From an uncultured Anaerolineae bacterium (GTDB taxonomy: Bacteria; Chloroflexota; Anaerolineae; Aggregatilineales; UBA3940): 64,000 bases of DNA. The notes below the pieces were generated by a model. That model did not search any database, was not told the origin of the DNA, and saw only the letters and a program-made list of their open reading frames with translations. Below, piece by piece: positions 7,973 through 53,842 of this stretch; the first letter of the stretch is position 1, and each line of letters opens with the position of its first letter. Position numbers and translations under genes: made by a program. The stretch lies in NCBI GenBank assembly GCA_964603985.1, contig CAZRXG010000001.1:10178-74177 (forward strand), written 5' to 3'.

Positions 7973-8282
7973 CGCGCCATACCACATCAACAGAATTTCA
8001 GCATATGTGGCAAGAGCTTGTACGAGCATCTTTGAGGTTGACGGTAACTTACCCCGGCCACCATAGACACTATAGTTCCAAATGCCCTGCGGGTCAAACA
8101 CATACTGAAGGCCGCGCTTGAGGTTGTTGCTGGCCCTGATCCTGATCTGGCAGGACTTACGCAGTTGGGCGCGAATTGCGCCTTACAAGGGGCTGGAGCC
8201 GCCTTGCCTGAGTGCTGAACCGCGTAACTCCTAACATTATCAAGAGAGAGAACCATCCCCGTTCAGGTAACATTATTTTGAT

Positions 8283-23187: not shown

Positions 23188-23628
23188 ATGGCAGACGAAC
23201 CGAGATTTGACCGGGCGGCTATCCTGCGTACATCGGCGATTATCATCGGCGGCGCGGCGCTTTTTGGGTTCCTTGTGCCGCTGGCGGGCGTATTCATCGC
23301 TCCCTGGAACACACGGAATGTCTCAGGCAGCGAGATCTACCGCTGGGCGTACTGGGCGATAGCCTGGGCGCTCACCATCTGGCAGGCGTCCTGGATGATC
23401 CGCGAGGTTCACGAGCGGATCATCGACGACATGATCGTGACCGCCATCATCGTCGCCGTCGTGCTTGTTATTGTGAAGTTCGTCATCTGGATCGTCTACG
23501 ATCCGAGGATCAACTGGGACCCGGTCACCCTCGGCGACCGGCTGGGGCCTATCACGGCGATTGACGCAGGAGGGGCCTTGATGTTGATCGTCGTAGCCCT
23601 GATCGGCGCGCGCATCAACAGATACTGA
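23188..23628 (+). CDS. Hypothetical integral membrane protein
   Basis: 146 aa with four hydrophobic segments. AGGAGCAGAAAGG lies upstream. Confidence 0.55.
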   Translation: MADEPRFDRAAILRTSAIIIGGAALFGFLVPLAGVFIAPWNTRNVSGSEIYRWAYWAIAWALTIWQASWMIREVHERIIDDMIVTAIIVAVVLVIVKFVIWIVYDPRINWDPVTLGDRLGPITAIDAGGALMLIVVALIGARINRY

Positions 23629-23637
23629 AAAAGTAAA

Positions 23638-23665
23638 CAGGGGCGAGTCTTTGAACCCGCCCCTG
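23638..23665. terminator. Hairpin between convergent genes (terminator for the reverse-strand response regulator, possibly bidirectional)
   Basis: CAGGGGCG (23638-23645) pairs with CGCCCCTG (23658-23665). On the reverse strand the stem is followed by TTTACTTTTTC. Confidence 0.55.
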
Positions 23666-23669
23666 CCAT

Positions 23670-40489: not shown

Positions 40490-40598
40490 ACTGGTAAGAC
40501 ATCCTCGATGATAAACTGCCGGTCACCCAGGGCAGCACAGCGGGGCCGATTGTAGCAGGGGCGGGGTCTTCTGTCCACACGCCCAAACGGCGACTTCC

Positions 40599-41084
40599 CT
40601 ACGTGCGGAGCAGGCGCAGGAGCGCCGCAGCACGCTCACCGGAGGCAGTGAGGACGAACTCGCGGTCGTCGCCGCCCAGGTCGCGGATCTCGACCCACAG
40701 GCGGGCGGCGGGGAGGATGCCCCGGATGCGCTCAGGCCACTCGATCACGACGACGCCCGCGCCGTCGAGGAGGTCCTCAAGGCCGGTAGCCCAGGCATCG
40801 GCCTCGTCCGCCAGGCGATAGCAATCGACGTGGTAGAAGCGCCGGGCGTCGTCGGGGTGATGGTACTCGTTGATCAGGGTGAAAGTGGGACTGGTGACCT
40901 GTTCGACCGCGCCCCAGCCCCGCGCCAGGCCGCGTGTCAAGCAGGTTTTACCCGCCCCCAGGCTGCCGGCCAGGCAGAGCACGTCACCTGGCTGGAGGTG
41001 TTGGCCGAGCTGCTGGCCGAGGCGCTCTGTCTCGGCGGGGGTGTGGGTGGTGAACTTCAAAGAAGTGGCGTTCTGGGCGGTCAT
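40599..41084 (-). CDS. tsaE: tRNA threonylcarbamoyladenosine biosynthesis ATPase TsaE (YjeE)
   Basis: GDVLCLAGSLGAGKTCLTRGLARGWG, SPTFTLINEY and HVDCYRL are the TsaE signature. Confidence 0.85.
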   Translation of the reverse strand: MTAQNATSLKFTTHTPAETERLGQQLGQHLQPGDVLCLAGSLGAGKTCLTRGLARGWGAVEQVTSPTFTLINEYHHPDDARRFYHVDCYRLADEADAWATGLEDLLDGAGVVVIEWPERIRGILPAARLWVEIRDLGGDDREFVLTASGERAAALLRLLRT

Positions 41085-41154
41085 GGTGGCCGGATTGTAG
41101 CGCAGCGGTCAGCGGTCAGCTAATCGGCGGGGCAGATGAATCCTGGCAGGGGGG

Positions 41155-41183
41155 TTGACAAGCCCTCCCAAATGTGATATTGT
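41155..41183 (+). promoter_or_regulatory. Sigma-70-type promoter of the ilv-leu leader (TTGACA-N17-TATTGT with TGn extension)
   Basis: TTGACA is at 41155-41160 and TATTGT at 41178-41183, with TG at 41175-41176. The promoter lies about 30 nt upstream of the leader-1 ATG. Confidence 0.65.
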
Positions 41184-41214
41184 GTTCCACAATGCGTAAA
41201 AGAGTATAGAGATC

Positions 41215-41310
41215 ATGCTGACACACTCAACCAACCACAACCTTCTTATTATTATCGTAGTTCTGCTTCTTGGCCTTATTAGCGGCCTGAAGCTAGACCC
41301 GGTTGGGTAG
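41215..41310 (+). CDS. Candidate attenuation leader peptide 1 (31 aa, Leu/Ile/Val-rich)
   Basis: My translation is MLTHSTNHNLLIIIVVLLLGLISGLKLDPVG*, with 9 Leu, 4 Ile and 3 Val, including an uninterrupted run of 10. At 31 aa it is below the ORF-track size cutoff. The SD is weak. Confidence 0.6.
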   Translation: MLTHSTNHNLLIIIVVLLLGLISGLKLDPVG

Positions 41311-41341
41311 GTGGCAGAGCACGATACAGCGAAGTACACCC

Positions 41342-41374
41342 AGCGCCCCCCAACCGGGGGGCGCTTTCGCGTTT
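41342..41374 (+). terminator. Intrinsic terminator (attenuator 1)
   Basis: AGCGCCCCCC (41342-41351), loop AACC, then GGGGGGCGCT (41356-41365), followed by TTCGCGTTT. CCCGGTTGGG (41298-41307, the last leader codons) is complementary to CCCAACCGGG (41349-41358). That pairing would be a mutually exclusive antiterminator. Confidence 0.65.
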
Positions 41375-41381
41375 AGGAGTG

Positions 41382-41534
41382 ATGAGCGGAAAGTGTGAGA
41401 CGGAGTACAACGTGAATTACCAGACCAGCGCAGCCATTCTTATCATCGTTATTGTACATATTAGCCTCCTTATCCTTATTAAGGAGCGCACGGCGGCGGC
41501 TGCGCCGGTCGGGACAAGGCACACGGACAGGTAA
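41382..41534 (+). CDS. Candidate attenuation leader peptide 2 (50 aa, Ile/Leu/Val-rich core)
   Basis: My translation is MSGKCETEYNVNYQTSAAILIIVIVHISLLILIKERTAAAAPVGTRHTDR*. Residues 19-33 are 13/15 Ile/Leu/Val. AGGAG ends only 2 nt before the ATG, which is short spacing. Confidence 0.5.
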   Translation: MSGKCETEYNVNYQTSAAILIIVIVHISLLILIKERTAAAAPVGTRHTDR

Positions 41535-41570
41535 GTTAAGTGCAAAACCAACCGGAACTAAGAGCAAAAG

Positions 41571-41608
41571 GGAGCCGCCTCAAACCGAGAGCGGCTCCTT
41601 CAGTTTAA
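41571..41608 (+). terminator. Intrinsic terminator (attenuator 2)
   Basis: GGAGCCGC (41571-41578), a 12-nt loop, then GCGGCTCC (41591-41598), followed by TTCAGTTTAA. Confidence 0.65.
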
Positions 41609-41645
41609 TGGGATTTTCACCCGGCTAACCGAGAGGAGAAACACC

Positions 41646-41855
41646 ATGTTTGGAGAGGAATATTTCGCGGGGTTCAAGATGACCGATCCTGAGGAAGCAC
41701 CCTTCCCGACAGGGCCCTGGGCTAATGCCTGGCACCCCGTCTGGGAGCGCCCTGACGGCCAGACGCCGATGGGACAGCGCAAGGACAGCAAGGCCCGTGA
41801 GGATGCAGCCATGCCGTCTGAGAGTGACTCAGATCTCAACGAACCGATGGACTGA
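41646..41855 (+). CDS. Hypothetical 69-aa acidic protein immediately upstream of ilvD
   Basis: A strong SD (GAGAGGAGAAACACC) precedes the ATG. The stop lies 4 nt before the ilvD ATG at 41860. I recognise no motif. Confidence 0.45.
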
Positions 41856-41859
41856 TACA

Positions 41860-43578
41860 ATGAGTAGTTCAGCTCAGGCCGGGACGGCTTCCTCGGTTTC
41901 AACACGCCCTATGCGGTCGGATCGGATCAAAGCAGGCGCGGAACGCGCCCCACATCGTGCGCTCCTTAAAGCGACAGGCGTCCGCGATGAGGACATGGGC
42001 AAGCCTTTTGTGGCAGTGGTCAATTCCTACATCGATATTGTGCCGGGCCACGTCCATCTCCAGGCGCTGGGCCAGGTCGTCAAGGAGGCGGTACGGGCGG
42101 CGGGGGCGGTGCCGTTCGAGTTCAACACCATCGGCGTGGGCGACGGCATTGCGATGGGCCATGAAGGGATGAAGTTCTCTCTGCCCAGCCGGGAGCTGAT
42201 CGCGGACTGCGTCGAGACGATGGTCGCCGCGCACGTCTTCGATGCAATGATCTGCATCCCCAACTGCGACAAGATCATCCCCGGTATGCTGATGGCGGCC
42301 ATGCGGTTGGACATCCCAACCATCTTCGTGAGCGGTGGGCCGATGCCTGCCGGGAAGACGCCGGATGGCCGCGCGGTGGACTTGATCAGCGTGTTTGAGG
42401 GCGTCGGGGCGTACAGGGCGGGGAAGATTGACGCCGACGAGTTGAAGATTCTGGAGGACTCCAGTTGTCCCTCGTGCGGATCGTGCAGTGGGCTGTTCAC
42501 TGCCAACAGCATGAACTGCATCATGGAGGCGCTAGGCCTGGCGCTGCCCTACAATGGGACGGCGCTGGCCGAGACCGATGAGCGGCGCGCGCTCGCCGAG
42601 CGGGCCGCCCGGCAGCTCGTGAGCTTGCTTGAGGCAGACCTCACACCTCGCCAGATCGCCACGCTTGAAGCCTTCGATGATGCCTTTGCGCTTGACATGG
42701 CGATGGGCGGCAGCACGAACACCGTGCTGCACCTCTTGGCCGTCGCGCACGAAGCCGGGATCGACTATGACCTGCACCGGGTCAACCAGATCGCCGAGCG
42801 TGTCCCGCACCTGTGCAAGATCAGCCCGGCCTCGCACTGGCACATGGAAGACCTGCACCGCGCAGGCGGCATCCCCGCACTGCTGAACGAATTGAACAGC
42901 GATGGCAATACGCTGCACCTGGATCGCCCGACCGTCACCGGCAAGACGTTTGGCGAAAGCGTTGCGTCCGCACAGGTGCAGGATCGTGAGGTCATCCTGC
43001 CTTATTCGGCTCCCCACTCTGCAACAGGTGGGCTGTCGATCCTGTTCGGCAACCTCGCGCCGGAGGGGGCGGTGGTCAAGACGGGCGCGGTTGATGCGAA
43101 CATGCGCCAGCATCGCGGGCCGGCCCGCATCTATGAGAGCCAGGACGAAGCGCTGCGTGGTATCTACGATGGGGAAGTGCAGTCCGGTGAGGTGGTTGTG
43201 ATCCGCTACGAAGGCCCGGCGGGCGGCCCCGGCATGCAGGAGATGCTCAGCCCAACCAGCGCCATTATGGGAATGGGGCTGGGGGACGAGGTCGCGTTGA
43301 TCACAGATGGACGCTTTTCGGGTGGGACACGCGGCGCGTGCATCGGGCACGTCAGCCCGGAGGCGGCGGCGCGCGGACCCATCGCGGCCTTGCAGCCGGG
43401 GGACATGATTGAAATCGACCTGGATGGGCGGGCGCTGAACGTGCAGCTTAGTGACGAGGAGATTCGGGCGCGGCTGGACGCGCTGCCATCCTTCGAACCT
43501 GGGGTGAGCAGCAAATGGCTGCGCCGTTATTCGAGAATGGTAACCAGCGCTTCGACAGGGGCGGTTCTCATCGACTAA
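41860..43578 (+). CDS. ilvD: Dihydroxy-acid dehydratase
   Basis: [23 protein letters not shown]..., CDKIIPG, and the C-terminal [22 protein letters not shown]. The start is either 41860 or 41911. The track start at 41725 overlaps the small ORF and is unlikely. Confidence 0.9.
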
Positions 43579-43694
43579 ACGCCAACCTGCCCAAGCGTAG
43601 GGGCGACGGCGTCGGAGGTTGCCAAGCGTCGCCCACCTGAGCCGTGACGTGCATGCACAGCGTCAAGCGGCCCTAAACTGAGGAGGAGGAGACA

Positions 43695-45401
43695 ATGGAG
43701 TTAACCGGTGCCCAGATCTTATGGGAGACCCTGGCGCGTGAGGGCGTCGAAGCAGTGTTCGGCTACCCCGGCGGCGCAACGCTCCCCACTTACGATGCAA
43801 TGCTCAGCTACTCAATCCGGCACGTGCTCGTCCGCCACGAGCAGGGCGCAGCCCACGCGGCGGATGGTTACGCCCGCGCCTCCGGCAAAGTCGGTGTGGC
43901 GATGGCGACCTCCGGGCCGGGTGGGACCAACCTGGTAACGGGCATTGCGACGGCCATGATGGACTCTTCCCCCGTCGTCTGTATCACCGGGCAGGTCGGG
44001 AGCGGGGCCATCGGCAGCGATGCTTTCCAGGAGACGGACATCACCGGCGTCACTCTGCCGATCACCAAACACAATTACCTGATTACCCGTGCTGAGGATA
44101 TCGGCCCCTCCCTGCGCGAGGCATTCCACATCGCACGGAGCGGGCGGCCCGGCCCGGTGCTGCTTGACATTACCAAAGACGCACAGAATGGAGTAGCCGA
44201 CTGGGAGCCGGATGACACCCCGGTTCGTCTCCCCGGCTACCAGCCCGACCGGCGCGCCCTGCCGGAGGACTTCGAGCGGGCGGTCGAGCTGATTAACAGC
44301 GCGAAGTGCCCGGTTATCCTGGGCGGGCATGGCATCATCATGTCGGGCGCGGAGCAGGTCTTCAGGCAGTTCGTCGAGAAGACCAATATCCCCGTCGCGA
44401 TGACCCTGCTCGGTCTGGGCGGCTTCCCGGCCAGTCACCCGCTCAACCTGGGCATGATGGGCATGCACGGTGAGGCGTGGGTCAACACAGCGATCCAGGA
44501 GGCGGACCTGCTGCTGGCCTTCGGGATGCGCTTCGATGACCGCGTGACCGGCACCCTCAGCACTTATGCCCCCAGCGCGCGCAAGATTCACATCGACATC
44601 GATCCATCCGAGATCAATAAGATCGTCCACGTGGATGTTGGTATCGTCGGCGATTTGAGGGAGACATTGGAGGAGTTGCTGCCCGTTGTCGAGGCGGTTA
44701 GCCGGGATGACTGGCTGGCACACATCGATGAATTGAAAGGCGACTCCGCCGTGCGCGACATCCAGCAGCTTCCAGATGATGGTCACCTTTACGCCGCGCA
44801 CGTCATTAACGACCTGTGGCGCTACACCGATGGGAATGCACTGCTCGTCACCGACGTGGGCCAGAACCAGATGTGGGCGGCCCAGTACTACCGGCACGAG
44901 CGATCCCGCACGCTGATCACCTCAGGCGGGCTGGGCACGATGGGCTTCGCACTGCCGGCCTCCATTGGGGCCAGGGTCGCCAGGCCGGATGATGAGGTGT
45001 GGGTGATCGCCGGGGATGGCGGCTTCCAGATGACGGCGGCGGAGCTTTCTACCTGTGCCCAGGAGGGGTTCAAGATCAACATCGCAGTCATCAACAATGG
45101 ATATCTGGGCATGGTGCGCCAGTGGCAGGAGTTCTTCTACGAGCGCCGCTACGCCGCCACGCCGATGCGCGGGCCGGACTTCGTGAAACTGGCTGAGGCG
45201 CATAGATTGACGGGGCTGTGCTGCACCACACGCGGCGAGATTGAGGCGGTGGTCCGGCAGGCACGCGAGACCGAGGGCACGGTCGTGATCGACTTCCGGG
45301 TCGAGAAAGAGGACTCGGTGTACCCGATGGTGCCCGCCGGTGCTGCCCTGCATGCGATGATCCGCCGTCCCGTCCTGATTCCCGAAAAGGTTGATGATTG
45401 A
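43695..45401 (+). CDS. ilvB: Acetolactate synthase (AHAS) large subunit
   Basis: MELTGAQILWETLAREGVEAVFGYPGG and the ThDP motif GGLGTMGFALPASIGA...GDGGFQM...NNGYLGMVRQWQ. GAGGAGGAGG lies upstream. Confidence 0.93.
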   Translation: MELTGAQILWETLAREGVEAVFGYPGGATLPTYDAMLSYSIRHVLVRHEQGAAHAADGYARASGKVGVAMATSGPGGTNLVTGIATAMMDSSPVVCITGQVGSGAIGSDAFQETDITGVTLPITKHNYLITRAEDIGPSLREAFHIARSGRPGPVLLDITKDAQNGVADWEPDDTPVRLPGYQPDRRALPEDFERAVELINSAKCPVILGGHGIIMSGAEQVFRQFVEKTNIPVAMTLLGLGGFPASHPLNLGMMGMHGEAWVNTAIQEADLLLAFGMRFDDRVTGTLSTYAPSARKIHIDIDPSEINKIVHVDVGIVGDLRETLEELLPVVEAVSRDDWLAHIDELKGDSAVRDIQQLPDDGHLYAAHVINDLWRYTDGNALLVTDVGQNQMWAAQYYRHERSRTLITSGGLGTMGFALPASIGARVARPDDEVWVIAGDGGFQMTAAELSTCAQEGFKINIAVINNGYLGMVRQWQEFFYERRYAATPMRGPDFVKLAEAHRLTGLCCTTRGEIEAVVRQARETEGTVVIDFRVEKEDSVYPMVPAGAALHAMIRRPVLIPEKVDD

Positions 45402-45476
45402 TTTCCGAAAGAGAAAATTCCGGGGGGGAGCACAGTGTGCTGCGCTTCTCCATAGCCAGCAGAGCGGAGGATGCAA

Positions 45477-46049
45477 ATGTCTGACAACAACGGTCGATAC
45501 GAAGGGCAAGAGCTTCAAACCTTTGTCGTGTACGTTGAGGATAAGCCCGGCGTCCTGAACCGCGTGGCGTCGCTTTTCCGCCGCCGTGCGTTCAACATCG
45601 CCTCGCTGACCGTCGGGCACACCGAGCGGCCCGGGGTCTCGCGCATGACAATCGTCGTCGAGGCGGATGACATGGTAGCCAGCCGAATTGAGGCTAACCT
45701 GTACAAGCTGATCAACGTACTGTACGTGGAGAATCTCACGGCGCAGCCCTCCGTCGTGCGCGACCTGGCCTTGATCAAGGTAGAGGCCACGTCGGAGACT
45801 CGCCACCAAGTCATCCAGATCACCGATGTGTTCCGGGCGCGCGTGGTCGATGTTGCAACCGACTCGGTGATCGTGGAGGTCACCGGCACAGCAGACAAGA
45901 TCGATGGCATCGTCGAGGTGCTGCGCCCCTACGGGATCATCGAGATGGTGCGCACCGGCATTGTGGCGATGAACCGCCGCTCGAACATACTCGCTGCCAG
46001 CCAGGGTTTCGTCATGGCGGGTGTGCCTGAGGGTGTTGCGGCGGACTAG
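45477..46049 (+). CDS. ilvN: Acetolactate synthase small (regulatory, ACT-domain) subunit
   Basis: VYVEDKPGVLNRVASLFRRRAFNIASLTVGHTERPGVSRMTIVV. The ATG at 45477 has GGAGG 6 nt upstream. The ATG at 45471 directly abuts that GGAGG. Confidence 0.9.
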   Translation: MSDNNGRYEGQELQTFVVYVEDKPGVLNRVASLFRRRAFNIASLTVGHTERPGVSRMTIVVEADDMVASRIEANLYKLINVLYVENLTAQPSVVRDLALIKVEATSETRHQVIQITDVFRARVVDVATDSVIVEVTGTADKIDGIVEVLRPYGIIEMVRTGIVAMNRRSNILAASQGFVMAGVPEGVAAD

Positions 46050-46177
46050 GTGCAACCGTGAAAAGCGTGGACGTTGAGCTTAGGCTCTCCCGTCCAGATA
46101 TATCGGGCGCGCGCCGGGACGCACATCCGGCGTGCTGACTGCCCAATCAGAATTACACCAGACAAGGATGTGGAGGA

Positions 46178-47191
46178 ATGGCAACCATTTACTACGACAA
46201 AGATGCAGACCTTGACCTTATCCGTGCGAAGAAAGTCGCCGTCGTCGGCTATGGCTCACAAGGGCATGCCCACGCGCTGAATCTTGCCGACAGCGGTGTG
46301 GAGGTGTGTGTCGGCCTGCGGGAAGGCAGCAAGAGTTGGTCCAAGGCCGAGGAGGAGGGGCTGGATGTGAGGACTGTTGCCGAGGCCGCTGCCTGGGGTG
46401 ACGTGATCATCATGCTGGTGCCGGACACTGCCGCGCCCGCCACCTATGCCGAGCACGTCGCTCCGCACCTCGCCGAGGGCAAGACGTTGATGTTCGCGCA
46501 TGGCTTCAACATCCGTTACGAGACGGTCGAGCCTCCGGAGAACGTCGACGTGAGCATGGTCGCGCCTAAAGCGCCTGGGCACCGCGTCCGTGAATTGTTC
46601 GTCGAGGGGGGCGGTACGCCCGCGCTGTTGGCGGTACACCAGGATGCCAGCGGCCAGGCTCAAGAGGTTGCTCTTGCCTATGCCAGTGCCATCGGCTGCG
46701 GGCGGGCCGGGGTGCTGCTCACCACGTTTGCCGAGGAGACCGAGACCGATCTCTTCGGTGAGCAGGCCGTCCTGTGCGGCGGTGTGACGGCGCTGATCAA
46801 GGCCGGGTTCGAGACACTCGTCAAGGCGGGTTACCAGCCAGAGCTGGCCTACTTTGAGTGCCTGCATGAACTGAAGTTGATCGTTGACCTCATGTACCAG
46901 GGTGGTCTGAACTACATGCGCTACTCGGTCAGTGACACGGCGGAGCACGGCGATTACACCGCCGGGCCGCGTCTCATCACCGAGGAGACGGTGGGCGAGA
47001 TGCAGAATCTCCTCGCCGATATTCAGGATGGGACTTATGCCCGCAAATGGATTGAGGAGAACGAGAAGGGCCGCCCCTGGTTTAACGCGGCCCGCAAGCG
47101 GGAGCAGGAGCACCTGATCGAAAAGGTCGGGGCTGAGCTACGAGAGATGATGCCCTTCCTCAACCCGGTCACGATTAAGCCGGGCGAATAG
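46178..47191 (+). CDS. ilvC: Ketol-acid reductoisomerase
   Basis: [36 protein letters not shown]. The SD is GTGGAGGA. Confidence 0.95.
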
Positions 47192-47236
47192 GGGCGCTTT
47201 CAACTCTCTACTATCGACTTTAGCCTTTAACACATT

Positions 47237-48913
47237 ATGGGAGCAAATCACATGGTAGACCGGCCAGATGACAGCTACGTGACCATCTTCGACACAACCC
47301 TGCGGGACGGTGAGCAGTCGCCCGGCGCGACGATGACCTCCGCCGAAAAGCTTGAGGTGGCGCGCGCCCTTGCCCGGCTCGGCGTGGATGTGATCGAGGC
47401 CGGTTTCCCGGCGGCATCGCCCGACGATTTCGAGGCGGTGCGCCGCATCGCCGTCGAGGTGGGCAACCACCGCGCGCTCGACCGCGAGCCGCCGGTCATC
47501 TGCGGGCTGGCACGTGCTACCAGGGGGGACATCGACGCCGCGTGGGGGGCCATCCAGGGTGCCGCCCGGCCCCGTATTCACACCTTCCTTGCCACGTCCC
47601 CGATCCACATGAAGCACAAGCTGCGCATGGATCCGGAGGAGGTCGTTGAGCAGGTGATCGAGATGGTCTCCTACGCCCGCAGCCTGTGCCCGGACGTGGA
47701 GTTCAGCCCGGAGGACGCCGGGCGCAGTGACCCGGAGTTCCTGTACGTCGTGCTGGGCGAAGCGATCAAGGCCGGGGCGACAACCCTTAACATCCCTGAC
47801 ACGGTGGGCTACACCACGCCGGATGAGTTCGGGGCGCTGATCGCCGGGATCATGGCGAACACGCCGGGCATTGAAAACGCGGTTGTGTCGGTACACTGTC
47901 ATGATGATCTGGGTCTCGCCACCGCAAACACGCTGGCCGGGATCAGAGCCGGGGCGCGCCAGGCGGAGGTCACGATCAACGGGATCGGCGAGCGGGCTGG
48001 CAACACCTCGCTTGAGGAGGTCGTGATGGCGCTGCGCACGCGCCGCCCGGTTTTCGGCCTGGAGACGGGGCTTGACACCACCCAGATCGCGCGGGTCAGC
48101 CGGATGGTGAGCAACTATACCGGCATCCCCGTCCAGCCGAACAAGGCCATCGTCGGGGCGAACGCCTTCGCGCACGAGGCGGGCATTCACCAGGATGGGA
48201 TTCTCAAGCACCAGGAAACGTACGAGATCATGCGTCCGGAGACGGTCGGTCTGACGCAGTCGCAGTTGGTGCTGGGTAAACACTCAGGCCGCCACGCGCT
48301 GCGGGCCAGGCTCGCCGAGCTGGGCTACGACTTCTCCGACGACGACCTGGGCAAGGTCTTCGACCGCTTCAAGAAGCTGGCCGACAAGAAAAAGACCATC
48401 ACCGATGCCGACCTCGAAGCCCTGATGACCGACGAGATTTACCAGCCGTGCGAAGTGTTCGCGATGGAGGGATTGCAGGTCGCCTGTGGGACGATGGGCA
48501 TGCCGACCGCGACCGTCCGGCTGCGTGGCCCGGATGGGGAGATGCGCACTCAGGCCGCCGTCGGGACCGGGCCAGTGCACGCGGCGTACACGGCGATTGA
48601 CCAGGTCGTTGGTATCCCGGCGACTTTGCTGGAGTTCGCCGTCAACGCGGTGACCGAGGGCATTGATGCCCTGGGAGAAGTGACCGTCCGCATCCAGTAT
48701 GCCAATGGCAGCCAGGACATGCTGGTCAATCCGCAGCATGGGACCACAACCAGCCGCACCTTCGGCGGGCACGGTGCGGACACGGACATCATCGTCGCCA
48801 GCGCGAAGGCTTATCTCGCTGCGCTGAACAAGATGCTGGTCGCTTACGGGTACCAGAATGGGGCGGAAGAAAAGCCCGCCGAAGTCGCCGTTCAGCAGAC
48901 GACTGCCGGGTAG
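47237..48913 (+). CDS. leuA: 2-isopropylmalate synthase
   Basis: [32 protein letters not shown], and a C-terminal LeuA dimerisation/regulatory domain. 558 aa. Confidence 0.9.
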
Positions 48914-48935
48914 CCGGGTGAAAGAGGACAAGACG

Positions 48936-50384
48936 ATGACACCCTCACCAACCGGCGACACCCGGCCCCGCACGCTCTTGGAGAAAGTGTGGGCTGACCA
49001 CGTCGTCCTTCAGGAGCCGGACTCGCCAGCCGTGCTGTACATCGACCTGCACCTGGTGCATGAAGTCACCTCGCCTCAGGCCTTCGCCGGGCTGCGTGCC
49101 CGTAGTTTGACCGTCCGCCGCCCGGATAGAACCGTCGCGACGATGGATCACTCCACGCCGACCACGCCGCCGGACGTTCCGATTGCCGACCCGATGGCGA
49201 TGATGCAGCTCAAGCAGCTTGAGGAAAATTGCCGCCAGTTTGGCGTTCCGCTGTATGGGCAGGGATCGGATAAACGGGGCATCGTGCACGTGATCGGGCC
49301 GGAGCTGGGTCTTACCCAACCCGGCATGACCATCGTCTGTGGGGACAGCCACACCGCGACGCATGGTGCGTTTGGGGCTTTGGCGTTCGGCATTGGCACG
49401 AGCGAGGTCGAGCACGTGCTCGCAACCCAGTGTCTGCTCCAACACAGGCCCAAGACCTTTGAAGTTCGCGTTGATGGACGGTTAGGGCCGGGCGTCTCGG
49501 CTAAGGACATCATCCTCCGTCTGATCGCAACCATCGGGATTGGTGGTGGAACCGGGCATGTCGTCGAGTACCGGGGTGAGACAATAGAGGCGCTCTCCAT
49601 GGAAGAGCGTATGACGATCTGCAACATGTCCATCGAAGGCGGCGCGCGGGCGGGCATGGTCGCGCCCGACGATACGACCTTTGAGTATCTCGCCGGGCGG
49701 GAGTTCGCGCCAAGGGGTGAGGCGTGGGATAGGGCCGTCAGGCGCTGGAGGAGCCTGCCAACTGATGATGGTGCGAGCTTCGACAGGTCCATCGCGCTCG
49801 ACGTGTCGGCGCTTGAGCCGATGATCACCTATGGCACCAACCCCGGCATGGGGATGCCGGTCACCGGTCGCGTTCCTGACCCGGTTGAGATCGCCGACTC
49901 GGTGGAAAAGACATCGCTTGAGAAGGCACTGGCTTATATGGATTTACAGCCCGGACAGCCGCTGCTGGGGCACAAGGTGGACGTGGTCTTCATTGGCTCC
50001 TGCACCAACTCGCGTCTCTCCGACCTGCGCCTCGCCGCCGGTGTATTCAAAGGACGCAGGGTTGCCGATGGTGTGCGCACTCTGGTCGTGCCCGGCTCCC
50101 AGCCGATCAAGCGGCAGGCTGAGGCCGAGGGGCTTGATCGCATCTTTAAGGAGGCGGGAGCCGAGTGGCGTGAGGCGGGCTGCTCGATGTGCATTGCCAT
50201 GAACGGTGACCAGCTTGAGCCGGGCCAGTACGCGGTCAGCACGAGCAATCGCAACTTTGAGGGGCGGCAGGGTAAAGGCGGGCGCACGTTCCTGGCCTCG
50301 CCGCTCACGGCGGCGGCGGCAGCCGTCACCGGGGAAGTGGCCGACGTCCGCGAACTGGTGGACTCGAAGATCATTATCTGCTGA
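48936..50384 (+). CDS. leuC: 3-isopropylmalate dehydratase large subunit
   Basis: The ATG at 48936 is preceded by [25 protein letters not shown] and GSCTNSR are aconitase-family motifs. Confidence 0.92.
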
Positions 50385-50409
50385 CGGGGGCGAATGCGTC
50401 GCCCCCGTG

Positions 50410-50447
50410 ACCGGGCCTGTGGAGGCACACCACGCCCGGTTTTGTTT
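50410..50447 (+). terminator. Terminator-like hairpin inside the operon (leuC-leuD spacer)
   Basis: ACCGGGC (50410-50416) pairs with GCCCGGT (50434-50440), followed by TTTGTTTAT. A second hairpin precedes it: GGGGGCGA/TCGCCCCC at 50386-50406. Confidence 0.35.
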
Positions 50448-50488
50448 ATGCGCTACTTGTACAAACGGCAGTTTGAGGAGGAGATTTC

Positions 50489-51115
50489 GTGGCACAGTTT
50501 ACGACGCTGACATCGCGGGTAGTCCCACTCCCCGTGGACAACATTGACACCGACCAGATCATCCCGGCGCGGTTCCTGAAAGTCACCGATAAAGAGGGGC
50601 TGGGCAAGGTGCTGTTCTGCGACTGGCGGTATGAAGAGACCGTTCCTACCGTCAGCGCAGCAGAAAACGCCACACCCAATCCGGAGTTCGTGCTGAACGA
50701 CACACGGTATCAGGGTGCGCAAATCCTGCTGGTGGGGGATAACTTCGGGTGCGGGTCCTCGCGCGAGCACGCCCCCTGGGCGCTCGTCAGCTATGGGTTC
50801 CGGGCGGTCATCTCGACCTCGTTTGCCGATATCTTTCGCAACAATGCCCTGAAGAACGGCCTGCTGCCGCTGATGGTGGACGAGGAAACCCACGCCGACC
50901 TGCTCGACCTGGTCGAGGAGACGACAGAGGCGGCGCTGACCATCGACCTGGAAGCACAGACCGTCAAGCTGCCCGGCGGGCGCACTGTGCTCTTCCCCAT
51001 CGACCCCTTTGCCAGAAGCTGCCTGTTGAAAGGCGTTGACCAGCTTGGCTACCTGCTCTCGTTTGAGGAGGAGATCAGAGTTTACGAGGAGGCCCATGAT
51101 GTCGCGACTGCTTAA
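50489..51115 (+). CDS. leuD: 3-isopropylmalate dehydratase small subunit
   Basis: The GTG start has GAGGAGGAG upstream. [17 protein letters not shown] and [17 protein letters not shown] are present. Confidence 0.92.
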
Positions 51116-52721
51116 GGGGGATAATGTCATTCAGGTGTATGACACCACTCTCCGTGATGGTACTCAACGCGAGGGGATTTCGCTCTCCTGCGATGATAAG
51201 GTGCGTATCGCCCGGCGGCTCGACCGGCTTGGCGTGACGTTCATCGAGGGTGGGTGGCCGGGATCCAACCCCAAGGACATTGAGTTCTTCGAGCGTGCCC
51301 GTGACATGGAATGGGAACACGCGCTCGTTGCGGCGTTTGGCTCGACCTGCCGAGTCGGCACCCAGCCGGAGGACGACGCCAACATCCGCGCCCTGCTAGA
51401 CGCGCAGACGCCGGTTTGTACGGTGGTCGGCAAGACCTGGACGCTGCACGTCGCCGACGTGCTGCGCACCACGCCGGGCGAGAATCTGCGCCTCATCGAG
51501 GAGAGCCTGGCCTACCTCGTGAGCCAGAACCGCCGTGTGATCTACGATGCCGAACACTTCTTCGATGGCTACAAGGCCGACCCGGTCTATGCGGTCAAGA
51601 CGCTCAAAGCGGCGATCTGGGGCGGGGCGGAGCTGGTCGTGCTGTGCGATACCAACGGCGGTTCGCTGCCCTGGGAGGTCGAGGCGATCTGCCGGGCGGT
51701 CGGTGAGGAGATCGACCACCCCTTCGGCCTCCACGCGCATAACGACGGCGAGTGCGGTGTGGCGAACACACTCGCGGCGGTGCAGGCCGGAGCGGTTCAC
51801 ATCCAGGGCACGATCAACGGCTACGGCGAGCGCTGCGGCAATGCCAACCTCTGCGCGATCCTGCCCGACCTGGAGATTAAGATGGGCTATCGCTGCCTGC
51901 CCGAAGGCGGCCTGGCCCAGTTGTTTGACGTTGCGCACTTCGTGGCGGAGGTTGCCAACCTCTCTCCCGACGAGCACATGGCTTACGTTGGGCGCAGCGC
52001 TTTCGCGCACAAGGGCGGCATTCACGTCGCTGCCATGCGCCGCAATGTGGACTCCTATCAGCACGTCGACCCGACGCTGGTCGGCAACACCATGCGGGTC
52101 GTTGTCAGCGAGCTTTCGGGGCGCGGCAACCTGAAGAGCAAGGCGGAGGAGTTTGGCCTGAATGCGGAAAACGGCGCGGACATGGCAGGCGTGCTCGAAG
52201 AGATCAAGGAGCTGGAGGCACGCGGGTTCTCCTTCGAGGCGGCGGAGGCCTCGGTGGTGATGATGCTCAAGCGGCAGATGCCGGATTACACCCCACCCTT
52301 TGAGCTGGTCGACTACACCGTTTACGTCGAGCGTCGCGAGGGGCGGGGAATGGTGACCGAGGCAACCGTCAAGATGATGGTCAACGGCGAGATGCTGCAC
52401 ACCGCTTCCGAGGGCAACGGGCCGGTGCATGCGCTGGACAACGCGCTGCGCAAAGCGCTCCTGCCGATCTATCCACCGCTCGCCAGCTTCCAGCTTGTGG
52501 ATTACAAGGTGCGTATCCTCGACGGGCAGAATGGCACTGCCGCCACCACGCGCGTGCTGATCGACACCCAGAATGCGCACGAACGGTGGAGCACAGTTGG
52601 GGCGTCAACCAACATCATCGAGGCGTCCTGGCGGGCGTTGGCCGACAGCATCGAGTACGGGCTGCTGCTGCACAAGGAGGAGTTCGCCCCGGCGGCGGTG
52701 CGGGCGGGAGCCAGCTCGTAG
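51096..52721 (+). CDS. cimA: LeuA-family paralogue of the citramalate synthase type (CimA-like)
   Basis: [54 protein letters not shown] matches the LeuA_rel/citramalate synthase subfamily pattern as I remember it. The ATG is at 51096 or 51099 after GAGGAGG, overlapping leuD by about 20 nt. Confidence 0.75.
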
Positions 52722-52768
52722 GGGGCAGGGGGCACTCTGTCCGTACCTTGCATGAGGAAAACACGTAG

Positions 52769-53842
52769 ATGACACAGGCAAAGATCATTCTTCTCCCCGG
52801 CGACGGCATCGGCCCGGAGGTTGTCGCGGAAGGCGTAAAAGTTCTTGAGGCTGTCGCGGAGAGGTACGGGCACGATTTCACCTTCGAGAAGCACTTGATG
52901 GGTGGTTGCGCCATCGACGAGTATGGCACAGCGCTCACCGATGAGACGCTTAAAGCGTGCCGCGCCGCCGGCGCTATCCTGCTCGGTGCGGTTGGTGGGC
53001 CGAAGTGGGACGATCCTCTTGCGCCGGTGCGTCCGGAGCAGGGGCTGCTCAAACTGCGTTACGAGCTGGGGCTGTTTGCCAACCTCCGCCCGGTAAAGGT
53101 GTTCCCCCAGTTGTTTGCCTCTTCGCCCCTGCGCCCGGATCGCCTGGACGGGGTGGATATCCTGGTCGTGCGTGAACTGACGGGCGGCATCTACTTCGGG
53201 GAGCCGAGCCTGCGTGAAGAGGTCAATGGGGACATCCGCGCGGTCAGCACAATGGCCTACACCGATGCCGAGATCAGGCGTGTGGTGCGGCTGGCCTTCA
53301 GGCTGGCCCAGGGGCGGCGCAGCAGGGTAACCTCGGTTGACAAGGCGAACGTGCTGGAGGTCTCCCGGCTGTGGCGGCAGGTGGCGCAGGAGGTGGCCGA
53401 CCAGTTCCCGGAAGTTGAGTTCGAGAATCAGCTTGTCGATGCAACGGCGATGCGGCTCATTCAGTGGCCGGCTGCCTTTGACGTGATTGTGACCGGCAAC
53501 ATGTTTGGCGACATCCTGACCGATGAGGCGTCGGTGCTGGCCGGGTCGCTGGGGATGCTGCCCAGCGCGTCATTGGGTGAGGGAAGGTTGGGCCTGTATG
53601 AGCCGATTCACGGCTCGGCGCCGGACATCGCCGGGAAGGGCATCGCCAACCCGATTGGCACGATCCTCAGCACGGCCATGCTGCTGCGCAGCTCGCTGGA
53701 TCTGGAGGATGAGGCGCGCGCGGTCGAGGGGGCAGTTGAGCAGGCGCTCGGCTCCGGAGCGCGGACGGCTGACCTGGGCGGCGATGCCGTCCTTTCGACT
53801 GCTGAAATGGGCGACGCGATATGTGAGCATCTGACAGGGTAG
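52769..53842 (+). CDS. leuB: 3-isopropylmalate dehydrogenase
   Basis: [29 protein letters not shown] and [14 protein letters not shown]. Confidence 0.93.

Follow-up and report, generated by a model that had tools for sequence, protein, structure and literature searches.

The locus raises the question of how a branched-chain amino acid (BCAA) operon is controlled when its leader carries two small open reading frames (ORFs) packed with isoleucine, leucine and valine (ILV) codons, each followed by a hairpin. The window analysed here is the whole 64,000-nt stretch of contig CAZRXG010000001.1 from an uncultured Anaerolineae bacterium, and all coordinates refer to its plus strand unless stated otherwise. 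The 560-bp gap between tsaE and ilvD contains, in this order, a promoter, ORF1, hairpin 1, ORF2, hairpin 2 and a 69-aa ORF. An earlier sequence-only reading of the window had proposed two tandem leader-peptide attenuators in front of a nine-gene operon, and the promoter, both ORFs, both hairpins, the operon and the tsaE neighbour were all found where it had placed them. From the sequence and its comparison with related loci, we consider it likely that positions 41155-41610 form the leader of the ilv-leu operon with two complete ribosome-mediated attenuators in series, both of which would sense charged Ile, Leu and Val tRNAs. This core proposal is supported by the conservation of the layout in 13 loci, by compensatory base changes in both hairpins, and by the statistics of the two alternative pairings of unit 2 (regions 1:2 and 2:3).

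Each proposed unit would consist of a short ORF with minor ILV codons, a region 1 located before or at the start of the ILV run, a GC-rich region 2 located after the run, and a terminator hairpin (3:4). Leader ORF 1 (41215..41310) encodes 31 aa, MLTHSTNHNLLIIIVVLLLGLISGLKLDPVG, with its regulatory ILV codons at 41242-41280. Sixteen of the 31 residues are ILV (9 L, 4 I, 3 V), including one run in which ten out of ten are. Leader ORF 2 (41382..41534) encodes 50 aa when read from the ATG at 41382, or 40 aa from the GTG at 41412; its ILV codons lie at 41436-41480 (ILIIVIVHISLLILI), and ILV make up 13 of the 15 residues at positions 19-33 (7 I, 4 L and 4 V for this leader). A leader ORF with clustered codons for the end-product amino acids is therefore present in both units, and this feature was conserved in 13 loci. 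When the six frames of the 64-kb window were searched for ORFs of 80 aa or less with at least 8 ILV in 10 residues, five were found, two of which are ORF1 and ORF2; ORF1 was the only one of the five with 10/10. Long open stretches, real membrane proteins included, supplied 37,012 ten-residue windows for comparison; 16 of these reached 8/10 ILV and none reached 10/10.

The other three small frames with at least 8/10 ILV (23395-23628 and 8118-8234 on the plus strand, 55555-55325 on the minus strand) resemble segments of membrane proteins or out-of-frame stretches. None of these three is followed on its 3' side by a leader-type terminator hairpin; an opposite-strand hairpin was observed at 23637-23666.

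The codons used for these residues also set the leaders apart from the operon. Of the 13 Leu codons in the window leaders 8 are CTT, a codon with an 11% share in the operon genes (p = 1.7e-5); ATT supplies 7 of 11 Ile codons vs 23% there (p = 0.005), and GTT plus GTA together supply 5 of 7 Val codons vs 19% (p = 0.004). The leader ILV codons CTT, ATT and GTT are minor codons of this genome. In close relatives the substitutions within the leaders were synonymous or exchanged one ILV residue for another, and the ILV character was kept. These substitutions and the bias towards minor codons lend indirect support to the idea that the leader ORFs are translated and that read-through would rise when a cognate aminoacyl-tRNA is limiting.

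For the comparison, ilvD upstream regions were collected from a genome scan, from a metagenome scan seeded with the 69-aa ORF, and from the contigs of related IlvD proteins. The contig set comprised IlvD proteins 79-84% identical to that of the window, plus the locus L099 from the 90%-identity cluster of the window IlvD. The best IlvD matches came from records titled Anaerolineae, Anaerolineaceae or Chloroflexi. A two-unit leader was found in 13 distinct loci (the window, L001, L082, L085, L086, L089, L091, L092, L093, L094, L095, L097 and L098), a count from which the duplicates L083, L090 and L096 are excluded. The close relatives L099 and L088 have the tandem too, L088 being cut at its 5' end within ORF1. 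In each tandem locus an ILV-rich ORF followed by a hairpin with a T tail occurs twice in succession. Alignment of the related ilvD upstream regions, which had been suggested as a check, revealed conserved BCAA runs and compensatory changes. The peptide ORFs were kept along with the hairpins in all 13 loci, so that a loss of the ORFs in relatives, which would speak against the proposal, was not seen there.

The tandem was present in every relative whose IlvD is at least roughly 75% identical and for which enough upstream sequence was available (roughly 700 nt or more). One unit only was found in the more distant Chloroflexota L002, L003 and L061 (IlvD identity 70-73%), and one ILV-rich ORF directly 5' of ilvD was found in other phyla (L007, L009, L017 and L072). 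Among 75 phylogenetically spread genome loci, L001 alone carried two units. On this evidence a single attenuator is widespread, and the duplication marks one clade. Some unit-2 terminator loops resemble the unit-1 apex (CTCAATCGACGGAG vs CTCCCAACCGGGAG); the single unit of L002 is like unit 1, and that of L061 is like unit 2. These resemblances make an old duplication likely.

Do the two units sense different amino acids? The sequence-only reading described leader 1 as Leu-biased and leader 2 as Ile-biased. The counts given above bear this out for the window, where Leu prevails in the stall zone of unit 1 and Ile in that of unit 2, and a division of labour could follow, with unit 1 responding mainly to Leu, unit 2 mainly to Ile (with Val), and the tandem integrating the amino acids. 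As a conserved property, however, the bias did not hold. Over 12 non-redundant loci the L:I:V numbers were 76:46:43 for unit 1 (46/28/26%) and 97:66:53 for unit 2 (45/31/25%), which is the same make-up; individual loci swing either way in their Leu/Ile bias, and all three amino acids are present in every leader. These equal proportions rule out a conserved Leu vs Ile specialization of the units, and we regard a division of labour as unlikely.

Both hairpins were predicted as terminators by the sequence-only reading, and GC-rich hairpins followed by T tails are indeed present at 41342-41374 and 41571-41608. Terminator 1 (41342..41374) has a 10-bp stem formed by 41342-41351 with 41356-41365, a loop of AACC, a folding energy of -23.2 kcal/mol and the tail TTCGCGTTTA. 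In terminator 2 (41571..41608), GGAGCCGC (41571-41578) pairs with GCGGCTCC (41591-41598) around an inner 3-bp helix, and the hairpin (41571-41598) has an energy of -20.1 kcal/mol and is followed by TTCAGTTTAA. Pairs were counted in trimmed alignments of the hairpin arms and compared with 500 shuffles. For hairpin 1, 96% of cells were paired and 5 pairs had changed on both sides, with 0/500 shuffles as high; for hairpin 2, 98% of cells were paired, again with 5 pairs changed on both sides and a score reached by 0/500 shuffles. With such compensatory base changes across loci, both hairpins are real structures as judged from the alignments. T-rich tails, typically TTTTCGTTT or TTTTTG and mostly better than those of the window, follow nearly all hairpins in the 13 loci. 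A relaxed scan of the window on its two strands, with a limit of -14 kcal/mol for the hairpin and a T-rich tail required, returned 14 sites, two of which are those in the leader, 230 nt apart. Thus a predicted intrinsic terminator stands between leader ORF and structural genes in both units.

In unit 1 the candidate antiterminator is formed by the end of the ORF and the top of the terminator. Region 2 (41298..41307, CCCGGTTGGG), the proposed 5' antiterminator strand, stops one nucleotide short of the ORF1 stop codon. Its exact reverse complement is the terminator 1 apex CCCAACCGGG (41349-41358), which would be the 3' strand. This complementarity had been noticed from the window letters; it was confirmed as exact, both strands proved to be conserved, and the pairing was adopted in folds of the nascent RNA. 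ILV-rich homologues of ORF1 with LLLGLI(S/G) and PVG motifs were identified in 12 other loci. The nine bases CCGGTTGGG at the ORF1 end were conserved in 13/13 loci, and they are complementary to the hairpin 1 apex CCCAACCGG, CCCAA(C/T)CGG. A conserved terminator loop is in itself unusual.

The reading context of CCGGTTGGG varies among the loci. In the window and four relatives it codes for the PVG at the C-terminus, in six others it is followed by 1-4 further codons, and in L094 and L095 the stop codon precedes unit-1 region 2, with two bases between them. Since region 2 is kept whatever its reading context, it is conserved as an RNA element and not for the peptide. In 13/13 loci it lies inside or overlaps the ~30-nt footprint of a ribosome on the stop codon, on either side of the stop. 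Across the loci 90% of the cells of the unit-1 antiterminator were paired, with a single compensatory cell. The compensatory pair occurs in L082 (CCGATTGGG with CCCAATCGG), and the variable position forms a G-U pair in L093 and L094.

Region 1 of unit 1 would be CCAACC (41231..41236), just 5' of the ILV run, which pairs with GGTTGG of region 2 in the minimum-energy fold when no ribosome is present. A further hairpin (41263..41296, CTTCTTGGCC...GGCCTGAAG) covers the last Leu and Ile codons of ORF1. It is kept in closer relatives, where the outer CTTC/GAAG shows wobble changes and the inner GGCC/GGCC has become GGGC/GCCC in L093; a role as a pause hairpin is possible. The terminator and antiterminator energies were compared by folding, as had been advised. 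The minimum-energy fold of a nascent RNA ending at 41358 is the 10-bp antiterminator (41298-41307 with 41349-41358), whereas the full-length free RNA folds with GGTTGG paired to CCAACC (41231-41236) and with the terminator formed.

Unit 2 provided the stronger covariation. The sequence-only reading had found only a weak alternative pairing there, and this was not borne out, as a 13-nt 1:2 helix and a two-helix antiterminator were identified. Region 1 (41423..41435, GACCAGCGCAGCC) is directly 5' of the ILV run and pairs with 41498-41510. The resulting 1:2 helix of 13 nt is part of the minimum-energy fold in the window, and A41427G in L088 mends its single mismatch. When cognate strands were compared with non-cognate ones, this anti-antiterminator had energies of -16.7 vs -13.5 kcal/mol (permutation p = 5e-5).

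Region 2 of unit 2 (41492..41512, GGCGGCGGCTGCGCCGGTCGG) is predicted to form the antiterminator through two helices. Its GGCGGCT (41495-41501) pairs with AGCCGCC (41573-41579) in the terminator arm, and the pairing is extended by CCGGTCGG (41505-41512) with CCAACCGG (41548..41555), the second helix in the nascent-RNA folds. The first of these pairings had been proposed earlier with AGCCGCC at its present position, but the GGCGGCT strand had been placed one base off. The block GGCGGCTGC.CCGGT of region 2 is kept in the closer relatives, and a pairing site comparable to 41548-41555 was seen by eye in L091, L092 and L094. The loops of hairpin 2 vary by locus (CTCAACCAACGG, TTCAATCGACAAGG, CCCAGGCATAGA, CTCAAGCGCAAG and CTCGCAGG); the segment 10-30 nt 3' of the unit-2 ILV run changes with the loop and stays able to pair with the 5' arm and loop. 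Cognate and non-cognate antiterminators had energies of -20.3 and -16.2 kcal/mol, respectively (permutation p = 5e-5). A mutually exclusive antiterminator (2:3) is thus indicated in unit 2 by the cognate test and in unit 1 by the 10-bp complement and its fold, and an anti-antiterminator (1:2) is indicated by the unit-2 statistics.

The start of ORF2 needs a correction. The frame 41382-41534 and its 13/15 ILV run stand as described earlier, but the first codon probably does not. At the ATG (41382) the AGGAG is just 2 nt upstream, and this ATG has become AAG in L099 and GTG in L088. The in-frame GTG at 41412, with GGAG 6 nt upstream, is kept in the window, L099 and L088, and its counterparts in the alignment are the GTG starts in L091, L092 and L094. 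The spacing and the loss of the ATG in L099 make GTG 41412 the more likely main start of ORF2. The ILV run is identical with either start.

These data also bear on whether both units work. A single functional attenuator, with the other unit a decaying duplicate or an ordinary structural element, would fit the missing covariation support for the unit-1 antiterminator of the window, the core of just 7-8 bp in its unit-2 antiterminator, and the more distant relatives in which one unit suffices. However, both ORFs, both hairpins and both region-2 segments have been kept in all 13 lineages despite extensive divergence, and compensatory changes were found in both hairpins. A decaying copy would not be expected to retain its ILV run, minor codons and terminator everywhere. 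We consider it very unlikely that only one unit works.

Could the ORFs instead encode hydrophobic membrane peptides, either toxins or small membrane proteins, with hairpins that merely end their transcripts and do not regulate the operon? The peptides do resemble single transmembrane helices. However, their cores are almost purely I, L and V, and the 10/10 run of ORF1 was unmatched in the 37,012 ten-residue windows. The peptide sequences diverge freely except in their ILV content, rare codons are used, and the PVG codons are kept even where they fall outside the ORF. In addition, the surrounding RNA forms covarying alternative helices, and similar ILV-rich ORFs are found directly 5' of ilvD in unrelated phyla. 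Membrane peptides of this kind are an extremely improbable explanation.

The preferred reading is two equivalent attenuators in series. The sequence and the comparison of loci provide the ORFs with their codon bias, the T tails, the covarying hairpins, and the conserved or covarying alternative pairings together with their placement around the stop codons; from these features we infer translation of the ORFs, stalling, the efficiency of termination, its dependence on BCAA and a multiplicative benefit of having two units. With a good BCAA supply, the ribosome in unit 1 would reach the stop codon and cover region 2, while in unit 2 it would move beyond region 2 and region 1 would re-pair behind it. 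In both units the terminator would form, and transcripts would end at ~41370 or ~41605. If any of the ILV tRNAs were scarce in charged form, a ribosome stalled in the run would keep region 1 off region 2, which could then pair with the emerging 5' arm and loop, and RNA polymerase would read through. Since a transcript must clear both checkpoints, read-through would be roughly the product of two probabilities, and two equivalent checkpoints should reduce basal expression and make the response steeper.

The terminated leader RNAs or their peptides might also act in trans, so that the duplication would serve a second function. A stable RNA of roughly 180-230 nt with a hairpin at its end would be set free by each unit, and a precedent has been reported in rnTrpL/peTrpL of Sinorhizobium (PMC7298713). 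However, the alternative structures in cis fully explain the pattern of conservation, and no search for target complementarity was made. An additional function in trans is highly unlikely in our judgement.

Several observations weigh against the two serial attenuators and should be set beside the evidence for them. ORF1 has no clear Shine-Dalgarno sequence. A region 1 like CCAACC was found in L089, L091, L093 and L094 as well as in the window, and its pairing with region 2 in only about half of the loci (unit-1 1:2 covariation, p = 0.08). The cognate vs non-cognate duplex test of the unit-1 antiterminator gave p = 0.64, so that its covariation was not significant, because both strands are nearly invariant; in L095 this helix contains a U-U mismatch. 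At equilibrium the terminator form of unit 1 is ~10 kcal/mol more stable than the antiterminator (-46.1 vs -36.2), and antitermination would therefore need kinetic trapping and hinge on which structure folds first. The ORF2 stop codon lies 21-50 nt beyond the end of unit-2 region 2; region 2 would not be masked by a terminating ribosome, and the model has to assume that the 1:2 helix forms again. The T tails of the window are interrupted (TTTCGCGTTT and TTCAGTTTAAT). A simple terminator scan of 40500-42500 returned no site, since the tails are interrupted and hairpin 2 is bulged. Lastly, the benefit of two checkpoints is argued by analogy with tandem riboswitches and T-boxes.

How does this leader compare with known systems? 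The scan with Rfam leader models, proposed earlier as a check, identified no family: with Rfam 15 at the gathering score there was none in the window and none in the leaders of 19 related loci, and the sole match in those loci was an unrelated small SRP RNA in L072. A permissive scan of the window gave chance-level matches, the best being Phe_leader (RF01859) with 19.5 bits vs 55 and E = 1.4, driven by the terminator hairpin. Control by a T-box or a riboswitch was dropped, given that no Rfam family matched and that the covariation centred on the ORFs accounts for the conservation.

The classical leader-peptide attenuators are those of the enterobacterial ilvGMEDA (ilvL), ilvBN (ivbL) and leu (leuL) operons, one per operon. 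Enterobacterial BCAA leader-peptide attenuators were reportedly treated by Vitreschak et al. in 2004. These leaders and the leader in the window have in common a short ORF with clustered ILV codons, mutually exclusive 1:2, 2:3 and 3:4 helices, and a terminator before the BCAA genes; in both, several amino acids would be sensed through a run of mixed codons. In contrast, the enterobacterial leaders have a single attenuator and no sequence similarity to the window, where the attenuator is duplicated in series and the unit-1 antiterminator is aimed at the terminator apex and loop. Serial sensors of another kind occur in tandem T-box leaders, such as that of Bacillus subtilis thrZ.

Serial copies of a sensor in one leader are also known from tandem riboswitches (PMC12452182). 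Tandem riboswitches and T-boxes are like the window leader in that one sensor-terminator module is repeated, an arrangement thought to give tighter or more switch-like control. Their sensors, however, are RNA aptamers or tRNA-binding RNAs and not translating ribosomes.

Outside Proteobacteria, a Leu-rich attenuator peptide has been described in the ilvD leader of S. aureus (PMC5794164) and an ilv leader in Listeria (PMC5864092). These resemble the leader in the window in having a leader peptide and terminator before an ilv-leu operon that starts with ilvD, but they have a single attenuator that acts together with the CodY repressor, and they belong to another phylum with different sequences. 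Leaders of actinobacterial ilvB have also been reported, together with the ilvB-II, ilvB-OMG and ilvB motifs (PMC1262725, PMC10272879, PMC11857589). As in the window, they have upstream ORFs with BCAA codons that overlap terminator and antiterminator hairpins, and they are known largely from comparative genomics. Unlike the leader in the window, they are single units before ilvB with other RNA motifs, none of which was detected by Rfam in the window or the 19 loci.

The closest match in layout is the mgtCBR leader of Salmonella, in which the tandem attenuators mgtM and mgtP act independently and additively, and which its authors called a singular example (PMC3641672). In both leaders two short ORFs are present and each governs, or in the window would govern, its own attenuator; tandem attenuation in the mgtCBR sense, with two leader ORFs each having its own attenuator structure, therefore describes the window leader. 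The two mgtCBR units differ in the signals they sense, which are ATP and proline, and the operon under their control serves virulence and Mg2+ transport. In the window the same ILV signal would be read twice and each unit has a canonical hairpin-plus-T terminator; the pair has been kept throughout a clade.

In the literature on tandem or double leader-peptide attenuators, mgtCBR was the only case found; the survey of Lopatovskaya et al. 2010 was not covered, and an earlier mention of Chloroflexi ilv attenuators there is possible. The earlier statement that tandem leader-peptide attenuators are unusual, particularly outside Proteobacteria, holds for the tandem layout, but single BCAA leaders of this type are known from Actinobacteria, S. 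aureus and Listeria. The mechanism is a textbook one; the doubled, clade-conserved layout is rarely described. Leader-peptide attenuation, one of the founding examples in the study of gene regulation, is nearly always described with one sensor per operon. A clade-wide natural duplication, in a poorly studied phylum known here from metagenome-derived sequences, offers a test case for whether control by serial attenuators is tighter or more switch-like. The analysis also supplies a ready-made annotation for unannotated Anaerolineae leaders, and an RNA family model could be seeded from unit 2, whose covarying 1:2, 2:3 and 3:4 helices are sufficiently clear for this.

Two unannotated, clade-specific small-ORF families were flagged within the biosynthetic leader. 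The first, absent from the sequence-only reading, is represented in the window by the 69-aa ORF (41646..41855), which lies between terminator 2 and ilvD and has a strong ribosome-binding site (GAGAGGAG). It contains the motif GPWANAWHP(S/V)W, and most loci of the tandem clade have a homologue of 65-98 aa in this position (L001 1983-2180, L082 731-973, L085 852-1052, L092 1037-1261, L093 2185-2481, L094 2254-2457 and L098 2025-2258). The ORF had no match in Pfam or NCBIfam; one homologue was returned by a word-indexed search and three representatives by an exhaustive phmmer search. It is probably translated, because the codons of the motif change synonymously between close relatives.

The second family, which is absent from the window, has a central PW(T/D)(D/E)W and a C-terminus of ALM(D/E/R)CYN(G/S) or LMRRY(N/Q/H)R. 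Its members are located at L091 2254-2460, L092 762-977, L093 1927-2184, L095 2280-2501, L089 2078-2317, L098 2255-2497, L001 2177-2491 and L085 931-1323. They end at or within ~40 nt of the next start codon, either that of ilvD or that of the GPWANAW ORF, and the order of the two families varies between loci. With a conserved C-terminus a few bases from a start codon in most loci, these ORFs could be translationally coupled to the next gene or act as regulatory upstream ORFs. One may go further and imagine a three-layer device, in which the two serial ILV attenuators form a multiplicative gate and the small ORFs are regulatory upstream ORFs, for instance nascent-peptide sensors coupled to ilvD translation; this is a speculative idea with a rather low probability.

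The start of ilvD itself may lie further upstream than annotated. P0002, the deposited protein of 555 aa, begins with the codon at 41911, and an in-frame upstream ATG at 41860 adds 17 residues. Several relatives have IlvD annotated at about 570 residues. The longer form (from 41860) may be real, because the substitutions that L099 and L088 carry in this part are mostly synonymous (5 vs 3).

The regulated operon (41911..53842) comprises ilvD, ilvB, ilvN, ilvC, leuA, leuC, leuD, cimA and leuB, as identified by NCBIfam scans. Since the gene after leuB is convergent, the operon consists of nine genes. Its putative promoter is of the sigma-70 type, with TTGACA at 41155-41160, a 17-nt spacer, TATTGT at 41178-41183 and an extended -10 TG at 41175-41176. 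The hexamers and TG recognized in the earlier reading were thus borne out, with matches at 10/12 consensus positions. In a 2-kb region there were 4 promoter-like sites vs 0.5 expected. Between L099 and the window the promoter hexamers and the TG are identical and the spacer has one substitution. A TGnTAnnnT motif was also found ~30-36 nt 5' of ORF1 in L001, L091, L092 and L094. Two further promoter-like matches, each with 9/12 consensus positions, were observed in the leader. One (41230-41203, minus strand) overlaps the ORF1 start and could serve tsaE, and the other (41417-41446, plus strand) falls among the AT-rich ILV codons of ORF2, whose base composition probably explains it.

The upstream neighbour of the leader, tsaE (40599-41084, minus strand), is divergent. 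Its product takes part in the t6A37 modification of tRNAs that read ANN codons, those for Ile included, and it adjoins an ILV leader. L099 can be aligned with the window only from ~41140 on, and the sequence 5' of that point differs. The adjacency of tsaE and the leader is probably a coincidence, because other relatives have unrelated upstream genes. A link between the t6A genes and the ilv operon has been reported in S. aureus (PMC10452758).

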